From the NCBI RefSeq assembly GCF_003018115.1, contig NZ_CP027457.1: a stretch of 64,000 bases of DNA; one strand, given 5' to 3'. Below, one piece after another: positions 6,352 through 6,820 of the stretch (positions within the stretch are counted from its first letter, which is position 1; each line of letters starts with the position of its first letter). The stretch comes from Escherichia coli (GTDB lineage: Bacteria > Pseudomonadota > Gammaproteobacteria > Enterobacterales > Enterobacteriaceae). The notes under the pieces were generated by a model, which was given only the letters and a program-made list of their open reading frames with translations, did not search any database and was not told the DNA's origin. A program made the position numbers and the translations under genes.

Positions 6352-6820
6352 AATGACGCCCTCTAGTGGTTTCTAAACTATCACCACCGTAAGGTTCCAA
6401 TCATCGGGTGGTGAGACGCACAGGGTTGGAACTACCGGGAAACCGACCGGCGAGCGTTTCAGCTCCCCCAGGCGCCCCACCATAATTCAGATGTACGCGT
6501 GCATACGACAATAAAAAACACGCTCGCGGTGTATGTCTGTCGCGGTCTCTAACCGGGGTTCCAATCCCGACAACTGATTTTGCGGTTGCGCGGGGAATAT
6601 GGCCCCGGAGGACAAAAACTGTCAATGGGCAAAAATTTTCGTTATCAGGAATGTATAAAATTAATTCAATTGAGCAAAAAATCCTTTCTGCAAAACTAAA
6701 AAAGATTTCAATAAAATCAGACAGTTAAAAACACTAAAAAACGGTATAAAAAAGTACCTCAAAATCCTGTTTTTTCTTTCAGATACAATGCCTTATTGCA
6801 TTTTTTAAAACCTGCCAGTG

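Follow-up and report, generated by a model that had tools for sequence, protein, structure and literature searches.

In the phages P1 and P7, the C4 antisense RNA is released from a longer precursor by RNase P, and in P1 translation of icd is needed for ant expression. The immI operon of both phages, with the c4 antisense RNA and the sites a1/b1 and a2/b2, was reportedly described by Citron & Schuster in 1990, and the processed C4 RNA is said to be 77 nt long (the title of Citron & Schuster 1992, as given by a citing source). Here, we analyze a GC-rich island in a 64-kb stretch of the Escherichia coli chromosome (hereafter, the window), which lies beside an antirepressor (ant) pseudogene at the end of a lambdoid prophage. 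The segment 6625-6349 on the minus strand is a sigma-70 promoter followed by an IsrK/c4-a1b1 leader RNA, a C4 antisense RNA, and the start of an ORF6N-type ant gene, and the island is very probably the RNA control region of a prophage antirepressor operon of the phage-P1 immI/Gifsy-1 isrK type. This type of module is already known, and the present instance is an ordinary one.

The a and b sites are named here by the convention of the P1 GenBank record, in which the order is promoters P2c4 and P1c4, a1, b1, the 77-nt C4 RNA, a2, b2, icd, and ant1/2. In that record, a1 and a2 both read UUGACAG, with a2 placed 3 nt after C4, b1 reads GUUAGUGC, and b2 (GUUAGUGA) lies at the icd ribosome-binding site. 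Within the P1 C4 RNA, the unpaired stretch that joins hairpin B to the closing stem is a' (CUGUCAA), and the loop of hairpin B is b' (CACUAAC).

The other closely related system is the isrK-orf45(STnc1160)-anrP locus of Gifsy-1 (Hershko-Shalev et al. 2016, PMC4825925; RF01394). There, the isrK promoter drives anrP transcription, basal translation of anrP is close to zero, and it rises 139-fold when IsrK is provided in trans, whereas IsrK with mutations in a1 has lost this effect. The position of C4 is occupied by a stable processed RNA, STnc1160, and the compensatory mutants G28A/C162U and G31A/C159U were placed in a pairing called helix b-I. Binding of IsrK to Hfq and trans-activation of antirepressor translation have been reported for Gifsy-1 only (PMC4825925).

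Identity of the GC-rich island

An Rfam covariance scan of the window gave two adjacent minus-strand matches above the curated gathering scores, directly upstream of the ant ATG. The C4 antisense RNA model (RF01695) matched 6487-6404 with 61.6 bits (cut-off, 45; E, 1.7e-9), complete over model positions 1-87, and the isrK model (RF01394) matched 6589-6513 with 60.4 bits (cut-off, 50; E, 1.9e-10) over its full length (1-77). In a permissive scan, c4-a1b1 (RF03163) also matched 6602-6550, overlapping isrK, with 38.6 bits (E, 5.6e-8), which is below its cut-off of 46.7. C4 and the P4 CI RNA belong to the same Rfam clan (CL00128), of which C4 is the best match here. P1's own C4 scores 68.8 bits on RF01695; its leader reaches 51 bits with the c4-a1b1 model and, terminator-like hairpin included, 35 bits (E, 9.5e-6) with isrK. 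Since the P1 leader matches both models, IsrK is the lambdoid/Gifsy counterpart of the P1 a1-b1 leader. That isrK (which has no clan) and c4-a1b1 (clan CL00128) match one element was seen both in the window and in the P1 leader (4218-4312 of the extracted P1 region), and the two appear to be models of one RNA that clan competition has left unmerged.

The original prediction, made without database searches, had proposed that a TTGACA-like box on the minus strand could drive transcription across the island toward an antirepressor-like gene and that the island could be a structured leader or a small RNA. Both ideas are borne out. The module lies directly upstream of the ORF6N pseudogene and on the same strand, with the ant ATG (6351) 53 nt past the C4 match, and the TTGACA box forms a promoter with a CATATT -10 hexamer; the TTGAC of the -35 and the ATATT of the -10 are invariant across the 42 homologous modules described below. 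Transcription is predicted to start near 6589. A short hairpin (cgggg...ccccg) that had been noticed in the same place does exist at 6591-6595/6603-6607, but it shows no covariation and pairs no better than shuffles; because it straddles the -10 hexamer (6596-6601), it is a feature of promoter DNA and not of the transcribed RNA. The rise in GC content that had drawn attention to the island is likewise real, albeit modest, at 0.565 for 6400-6599 compared with 0.41-0.43 leftward and 0.305 for 6600-6799.

The minus-strand folding energy of C4 alone gave a z value of -2.57, and folding of IsrK alone gave +0.13. For the whole 267-nt region, folding of both strands, which had been put forward as a check, was no better than that of shuffles on either strand (z, -0.85 and -0.45). 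Folding energy alone would therefore have missed the element, and the evidence that counts is the covariance-model matches together with the covariation. A simple terminator scan did not call the IsrK terminator, which contains one A.C mismatch, and hairpin 1 of IsrK contains one C.A mismatch. ARAGORN found no tRNA and no tmRNA in the window.

Covariation at the a and b sites

A viral contig collection was searched with the Ant protein of Stx2 phage II alone, giving 80 loci, 76 of which carry a complete module immediately upstream of ant. These modules reduce to 42 distinct sequences (the window and 41 others), on which all alignment tests were run. The tested structure comprised the IsrK hairpins and terminator, the C4 fold, and the a1:a' helix; 99.1% of its cells are paired, and 18 of its pairs have changed on both sides. 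On four of five measures, none of 500 shuffles reached the observed value, and when the partners were slid by 1-3 columns as a control, pairing fell to 36-42%. Within C4, the closing stem is 99.9% paired with 5 of its 17 pairs changed on both sides, all five pairs of hairpin A have two-sided changes, and hairpin B is 100% paired. The covariation in homologous prophages to which the original prediction had looked is thus present.

The same holds for the pairings between C4 and its target sites (Table 1). The a1:a' helix is 100% paired, with two-sided changes in 4 of 8 columns and no one-sided change at all; the a':a2 helix is also 100% paired, with two-sided changes in 4 of 8 columns that covary as those of a1:a' do and again no one-sided change, and one a type carries a matched 1-nt insertion in a1, a', and a2. 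Because the length of the hairpin-B loop varies, b' was tested by duplex energies and not by columns. Cognate b':b2 duplexes averaged -9.9 kcal/mol and non-cognate ones -5.2 kcal/mol, while for b':b1 the corresponding means were -8.7 and -3.7 kcal/mol; in both cases, the cognate duplex was the best in nine of nine rows, and none of 20000 permutations reached the observed total. In every homologue, b2 either overlaps the ant start codon or precedes it by 8-22 nt, and in all 42 modules as well as in P1, a1 and b1 stand immediately upstream of the terminator. Covariation was therefore found at all four sites, in addition to the family membership, the conserved promoter, and the C4 fold.

The alignment contains six a types, to which a second module of the window's own prophage (see below) adds a seventh; the b' types number nine among the 42 homologues and differ in length. 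With 14 combinations of a and b in the alignment, the two sites behave as independently reshuffled specificity determinants. The b' type of the window (UCGGUUUC) is common to 21 of the 41 other modules, including that of Stx2 phage II, and the a1, a', and a2 of the window copy are still perfectly matched. The a2 site lies in the loop of an alternative hairpin formed by UCACCACC (6414-6407) and GGUGGUGA (6388-6381), which is 100% paired in the homologues. The loop of IsrK hairpin 1 (GCAAAAUC) was also considered as a target of C4 and rejected; it is invariant while a' and b' vary and is thus not a specificity site.

These results change the meaning of the inverted repeats from which the search had started, which had been read as a nested fold. 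The outer repeat exists, with ggttggaactaccgg at 6424-6438 pairing with ccggggttccaatcc at 6553-6567, although the second arm had been placed 10 nt off (6563-6577). The 7-nt core of this repeat (6426-6432 with 6558-6564) greatly exceeds what chance would give and is conserved as a1:a', so the long-range complementarity is a pairing of antisense with target and not the outer stem of a fold. The inner repeat (gcgagcgt/acgctcgc) is likewise present, at 6450-6457/6520-6527 and not at 6457-6464/6522-6529. As a structure it fails: among the 42 homologues only 73% of its cells are paired, two-sided changes are absent, and its pairing does not exceed that of shuffles. Without a mutation at 6457 that is private to the window, it would be shorter than 8 bp.

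Table 1. Positions of the module, its target sites, and the neighboring genes in the window
Feature	Position	Strand	Description
Sigma-70 promoter	6596..6625	-	-35 TTGACA at 6625-6620, 18-nt spacer, -10 CATATT at 6601-6596; 10/12 matches in scan
IsrK/c4-a1b1 leader RNA	6513..6589	-	Hairpin 1 at 6589-6570; hairpin 2 at 6569-6554; terminator-like hairpin at 6534-6518, U run to 6513
a1 target/mimic site	6558..6564	-	UUGGAAC; loop of IsrK hairpin 2; complementary to a'
b1 site	6543..6549	-	GAGACCG; just 3' of IsrK hairpin 2; complementary to C4 hairpin-B loop with one G.U pair
C4 antisense RNA	6404..6487	-	Closing stem 6482-6466 with 6425-6409; hairpin A at 6465-6452; hairpin B at 6451-6434
b' recognition loop	6439..6446	-	UCGGUUUC; loop of C4 hairpin B
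a' recognition segment	6426..6432	-	GUUCCAA; single-stranded, between C4 hairpin B and closing stem
a2 target site	6394..6400	-	UUGGAAC; 3 nt past the Rfam C4 match
b2 target site	6368..6373	-	GAAACC; 4 nt upstream of the ant Shine-Dalgarno GAGGG (6363-6359)
ORF6N-type antirepressor (ant) pseudogene	5794..6351	-	ATG at 6351-6349; in-frame TAG after codon 37 (6240-6238); frameshift near 6100
AT-rich stretch	6640-6808		Presumed prophage attachment arm, between ompW fragment and isrK promoter
ompW 3' fragment	6809-6934	+	Marks prophage-chromosome junction; in RefSeq of the identical genome, "OmpW family ... missing N-terminus"
yciG, yciF, yciE	7000-8370		Chromosome side
trpA and trpB	8692 and upward		Chromosome side

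Prophage setting and decay of the window copy

The window is identical (100%) to the chromosome of E. coli isolate 07-4299 (NZ_CP027462). The prophage is inserted in ompW and splits that gene, of which the 3' fragment alone is present in the window. Below about 6640 lies the tail end of the lambdoid prophage (J, lom, tail fibre, and tail-fibre assembly genes), and the RNA module lies in the final ~300 bp of the prophage beside the AT-rich attachment arm. Of 5426 complete E. coli genomes, 656 contain the 261-nt module, as do 231 phage records, most of which belong to Stx-converting phages. The phage copies lie in the nin region, upstream of a gene labeled antirepressor-like, and the copy in Salmonella Gifsy-1 (79% identity over 215 nt) is flanked by the gene of the Q antiterminator and by STM2616 (anrP). 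Forty-seven complete E. coli genomes show the arrangement at the ompW end of a prophage. A literature search found nothing specific that links the antirepressors of Stx phages to C4.

The antirepressor gene itself is broken. The Ant protein of Stx2 phage II matches it in two frames with an internal stop (tblastn), and RefSeq labels it "frameshifted; internal stop". Its intact homologues contain the Pfam ORF6N domain, and Stx2-II Ant also has the P22 antirepressor C-terminal domain. Inside the pseudogene, at 6132-6160 (plus strand), there is a perfect palindrome with a 13-bp stem followed by T6 (TTTGTGACTTACTTAAAGTAAGTCGCAAATTTTTT), located at the point where the pseudogene lacks ~18 codons in comparison with Stx2-II Ant; it may be a deletion scar or a terminator-like element.

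The module of the window is a decaying relic beside this dead gene, and only in this sense does the early suggestion of a remnant of another element hold. Its -10 reads CATATT owing to a private T-to-C change at 6601, while the 41 others all have TATATT, and with 10 private changes at columns that are invariant in the other 41 sequences, it has the most of any sequence. Compared with an intact allele, the predicted stability of IsrK hairpin 1 has dropped from -5.9 to -0.8 kcal/mol and that of the IsrK terminator from -9.7 to -2.7 kcal/mol. Private A-to-C changes at 6472 and 6457 break one pair of the C4 closing stem and one of hairpin A, respectively; with these two changes, the canonical C4 fold is no longer the predicted minimum, and the minimum free energy of C4 is -38.2 kcal/mol, compared with -44.9 in the nearest relatives. 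The weakened -10, the damage to IsrK hairpin 1 and the terminator, and the ant pseudogene are shared by the lineage, whereas the two C4 changes occur in the window only. Its close relatives differ from it at just these two of ~320 module positions, both of them stem-breaking, and the surrounding 1.4 kb shows ~1% divergence. Since the module is thus no less divergent than its surroundings, selection on an orphan RNA receives no support, and the pattern would look like what is expected from neutral decay after loss of the target gene.

In some of the 47 genomes, an intact allele with ~85% identity occupies the same ompW-end site, as in E. coli 05-3629 (715-1614 of the extracted locus). Its ORF6N gene is intact (186 aa), as is its IsrK hairpin 1; the -10 reads TATATT, the terminator is strong, and the a type of the window is combined with another b type. 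A location at the end of a prophage is therefore a genuine functional arrangement in some strains. The prophage of the window appears largely complete, and beyond the window, its nin region holds a second, intact isrK-C4-ORF6N module (NZ_CP027462, ~2,528,800-2,529,000; 42403-42587 of the extracted locus), with a UUGAGAC, a' GUCUCAA, and b' UUGGUUGAU and with an IsrK hairpin 1 that also differs from that of the window. One prophage thus carries two heterospecific antirepressor switches, which, given their different a and b codes, should not cross-react.

Several other features were recorded along the way. The tail-fibre gene of the prophage (3459-4646, plus strand) contains a long collagen-like Gly-X-Y repeat with a GC content of ~0.69, far above its surroundings. 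An 87-aa open reading frame (ORF) at 5434-5697 (minus strand), between the tail-fibre assembly gene and the ant pseudogene, is unannotated in the identical RefSeq genome and had no Pfam match. Two ordinary chromosomal features of the window are the small RNA (sRNA) STnc180 (27772-27974, plus strand; 202.9 bits) and the trp operon leader (15244-15337, minus strand; 91.4 bits). Beyond the window, the same prophage holds five matches to the STnc100 sRNA (119-172 bits), all on one strand and four in tandem, in its late region near tRNA genes (31214-34165 of the extracted NZ_CP027462 locus).

Possible mechanism and relation to known systems

Transcription, termination, RNase P processing, and repression are taken here from the homologues P1, P7, and Gifsy-1 only, and by analogy with them, an intact module would work as follows. 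The sigma-70 promoter (6625-6596) would start a transcript near 6589, most copies of which would end at the IsrK terminator (~6513) and yield a ~77-nt leader RNA carrying a1 and b1, while read-through transcripts would extend into C4 (6487-6404) and ant. C4 would be released as a stable ~80-nt RNA with two exposed segments, a' and b'. By pairing of a' with a2 just after C4 and of b' with b2 beside the ant Shine-Dalgarno, it would block ribosome entry, so that no antirepressor is made and lysogeny is kept. In cis, a1 and b1 may pair with the C4 segments and either hold the read-through RNA inactive or aid termination; in trans, excess IsrK may act as a decoy for C4 and free the ant ribosome-binding site. 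As the a and b sequences differ between phages, they would form a specificity code and thereby provide heteroimmunity.

The Gifsy-1 experiments can be placed on this scheme. If Gifsy-1 is numbered from the A of ACGCCAGC, all residues that the paper (PMC4825925) names are recovered, and G28 and G31 fall in a1 and C162 and C159 in a', so that the pairs G28-C162 and G31-C159 belong to a1:a' (window 6564-6558 with 6432-6426). The published data fit a C4 RNA that represses translation at a2/b2, with IsrK as a competitor for a' and b'.

Several points nevertheless weigh against this mechanism: (i) for the strain of the window, its transcription, termination, processing, and repression would have to be read across from P1, P7, and Gifsy-1. 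(ii) Mutation of a1 in cis raises, and does not lower, expression in Gifsy-1 (PMC4825925); a pure decoy does not predict this, and the effect would rather point to a function of a1:a' in cis, either in an inactive conformer or in a P4-like termination. (iii) The b':b2 duplex of the window has 6 bp only (-7.3 kcal/mol), and b2 stops 4 nt short of the Shine-Dalgarno instead of covering it. (iv) Neither a P1-type icd gene between c4 and ant nor a C1 operator at the promoter was found here. (v) The Gifsy-1 authors themselves explain their locus by a translated orf45 and two alternative mRNA structures, not by a free C4 (PMC4825925).

The Gifsy-1 model as published could in principle apply to the window as well, although we consider this rather unlikely. 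In that model, there is no free antisense RNA; a leader ORF (orf45) lies in an mRNA that switches between an inactive structure A, in which the middle of IsrK is paired to the 3' part of orf45, and an active structure B; the short form of IsrK is the activator in trans, and translation of ant is coupled to that of the leader ORF. It comes from direct experiments on a 79%-identical locus, in which ORF45-SPA was detected, start- and stop-codon mutants lowered activation, and two conformers were seen on native gels (PMC4825925). The window has a counterpart of orf45, an ORF of 36 aa (6483-6373, minus strand) whose conserved AUG (6483-6481) falls in the 5' strand of the closing stem of C4 and whose stop precedes the ant ATG by 21 nt. 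However, the leader ORF is conserved neither in length nor in frame: in the homologues it has 8, 14, 27, 31, 33, 35, 36, or 45 aa or is fused into ant, with frame shifts at 1-nt indels, and its stop precedes the ant ATG by 21-110 nt in almost every sequence, while the coupling overlap with the ant start (AUGA) occurs in Gifsy-1 only (1 of 42). The Gifsy-1 authors also noted that the nucleotide sequence of the leader region is kept while its amino acid sequence varies (PMC4825925). Conserved nucleotides under a variable length and frame indicate selection on the RNA and not on a peptide. Moreover, the pair G114-C175 of structure B is a pair of the C4 closing stem and helix b-I is a1:a', so the Gifsy-1 data fit the C4 model equally, and the published model leaves the covarying a2 and b2 at the ant ribosome-binding site unaccounted for.

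Tentatively, attenuation in the manner of P4 might form an added layer upon repression by C4. Here, C4 would pair with a1/b1 on the nascent leader and enforce termination at the IsrK terminator, as P4 CI does with seqA/seqC, and would thus restrict transcription of ant and of its own gene in addition to repressing translation. The constant position of a1/b1 directly upstream of the terminator (42 of 42 modules and P1) and the clan shared by C4 and P4 CI speak for it, as do findings in Gifsy-1, whose authors raised the idea: IsrK in trans increased a transcriptional fusion 8-fold, and a1 mutated in cis gave higher basal expression (PMC4825925). Against it, constitutive STnc1160 did not relieve the IsrK-mediated growth arrest in Gifsy-1 but made it stronger (PMC4825925), and the terminator stem of the window copy is already weak (-2.7 kcal/mol).

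It is considerably less likely that the window module has been kept after the loss of ant as an orphan element acting in trans, repressing or derepressing the antirepressors of resident or incoming phages with the same code. The still matched a1, a', and a2, the 47 genomes with the ompW-end arrangement, and the widely shared b' type would suit such a role. The combination of a and b in the window is unique in the set, however, and the second module of the same prophage has other a and b codes; the weakened -10, the damaged hairpin 1 and terminator, the two breaks in the C4 stems, and a divergence no lower than that of the adjacent pseudogene also argue against it. The same low probability attaches to the broader idea that the a and b sites (at least 7 a types, 9 b types, and at least 14 combinations) form a combinatorial address code of lambdoid prophages, reshuffled between phages, through which an orphan C4/IsrK left at a prophage end after the death of its antirepressor might still act in trans. 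If this were true, such an orphan could silence, or through IsrK awaken, the antirepressors of other phages, amounting to an RNA-based cross-immunity between prophages.

A small protein (the 74-aa Arg/Gly/Pro-rich ORF at 6625-6401 on the minus strand, or ORFs of 42 or 36 aa) or a chance GC-rich patch with fortuitous repeats can practically be set aside: the ORFs exist mechanically and the whole-region folding energy is no better than that of shuffles, but the 74-aa ORF starts with the TTG inside the -35 box, Pfam gave no match for the 74-aa, 36-aa, or 37-aa ORF of the island, every frame is broken among the homologues by loops of variable length and by 1-nt indels in a1 and a', substitutions track base pairing and not codon positions, and two covariance models score above their curated thresholds. 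The ORFs spanning the island are artefacts, as the original prediction had suggested for the 74-aa one. For annotation, the segment should therefore be entered as noncoding RNA genes beside a pseudogene and not as a coding sequence.

In itself, the module of the window has little significance, being an instance of a system described in P1/P7 (1990) and Gifsy-1 (2016) of which both RNAs are Rfam families. A by-product is that the lambdoid and Gifsy-type modules have all four target sites of the P1 scheme (a1, b1, a2, and b2) and that these covary. Taken together with the equivalence of isrK and c4-a1b1, the identity of helix b-I with a1:a', and the lack of conservation of orf45, this suggests that the Gifsy-1 locus could be re-read as a C4 antisense system in which IsrK is a target mimic.

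Among the known systems, the immI operon of P1/P7 shares with the window module the order of promoter, a1, b1, terminator-like hairpin, C4, a2, b2, and ribosome-binding site; a C4 with a closing stem and two hairpins, b' in the hairpin-B loop and a' single-stranded; an a2 within a few nucleotides of C4 and a b2 that abuts the Shine-Dalgarno; an antirepressor as the regulated product; and a specificity set by short a/b sequences that differ between phages. Unlike P1, the window module has no icd, and its b2 lies before ant itself, whereas that of P1 overlaps the icd ribosome-binding site. In the window, C4 and the ant ATG are only 53 nt apart, and the sole ORF there begins within C4 and is not conserved, so that the module works like immI without being the P1 operon. 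Furthermore, the antirepressor is of the ORF6N type and not the Ant1/2 of P1 with its KilAC/ANT domain, the host element is a chromosomal prophage of the lambdoid kind, whereas P1 is a plasmid prophage, the promoter showed no C1-type operator, and the window copy is degraded.

The Gifsy-1 locus corresponds to the window module in its promoter, IsrK hairpins, terminator, C4, and ORF6N antirepressor. It differs in its a type (UUGGCGU) and b' loop (UCGGUGAU), in a leader ORF of 45 aa that overlaps the anrP start, whereas that of the window has 36 aa and ends 21 nt upstream, and in its place downstream of the Q gene, whereas the window module stands at the end of the prophage before an antirepressor that is a pseudogene.

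For the immunity system of P4 (CI RNA, seqA/seqC), IsrK has been called a structural homologue of seqA by the Gifsy-1 authors (PMC4825925). The likeness extends to the shared clan CL00128 and to a small RNA that is cut from a leader and pairs with repeated sites up- and downstream; in contrast, P4 CI terminates transcription of the replication (alpha) operon, while the gene downstream in the window is an ORF6N antirepressor. In the immI region of P22, the second immunity region of a temperate enterobacterial phage, an antisense RNA (sar) likewise limits antirepressor synthesis. However, sar is transcribed as a true cis-antisense RNA to the start of ant, and P22 has the repressor proteins Mnt and Arc in addition, whereas the RNA of the window is encoded in tandem on the same strand as its target and would act through short loop complementarities.

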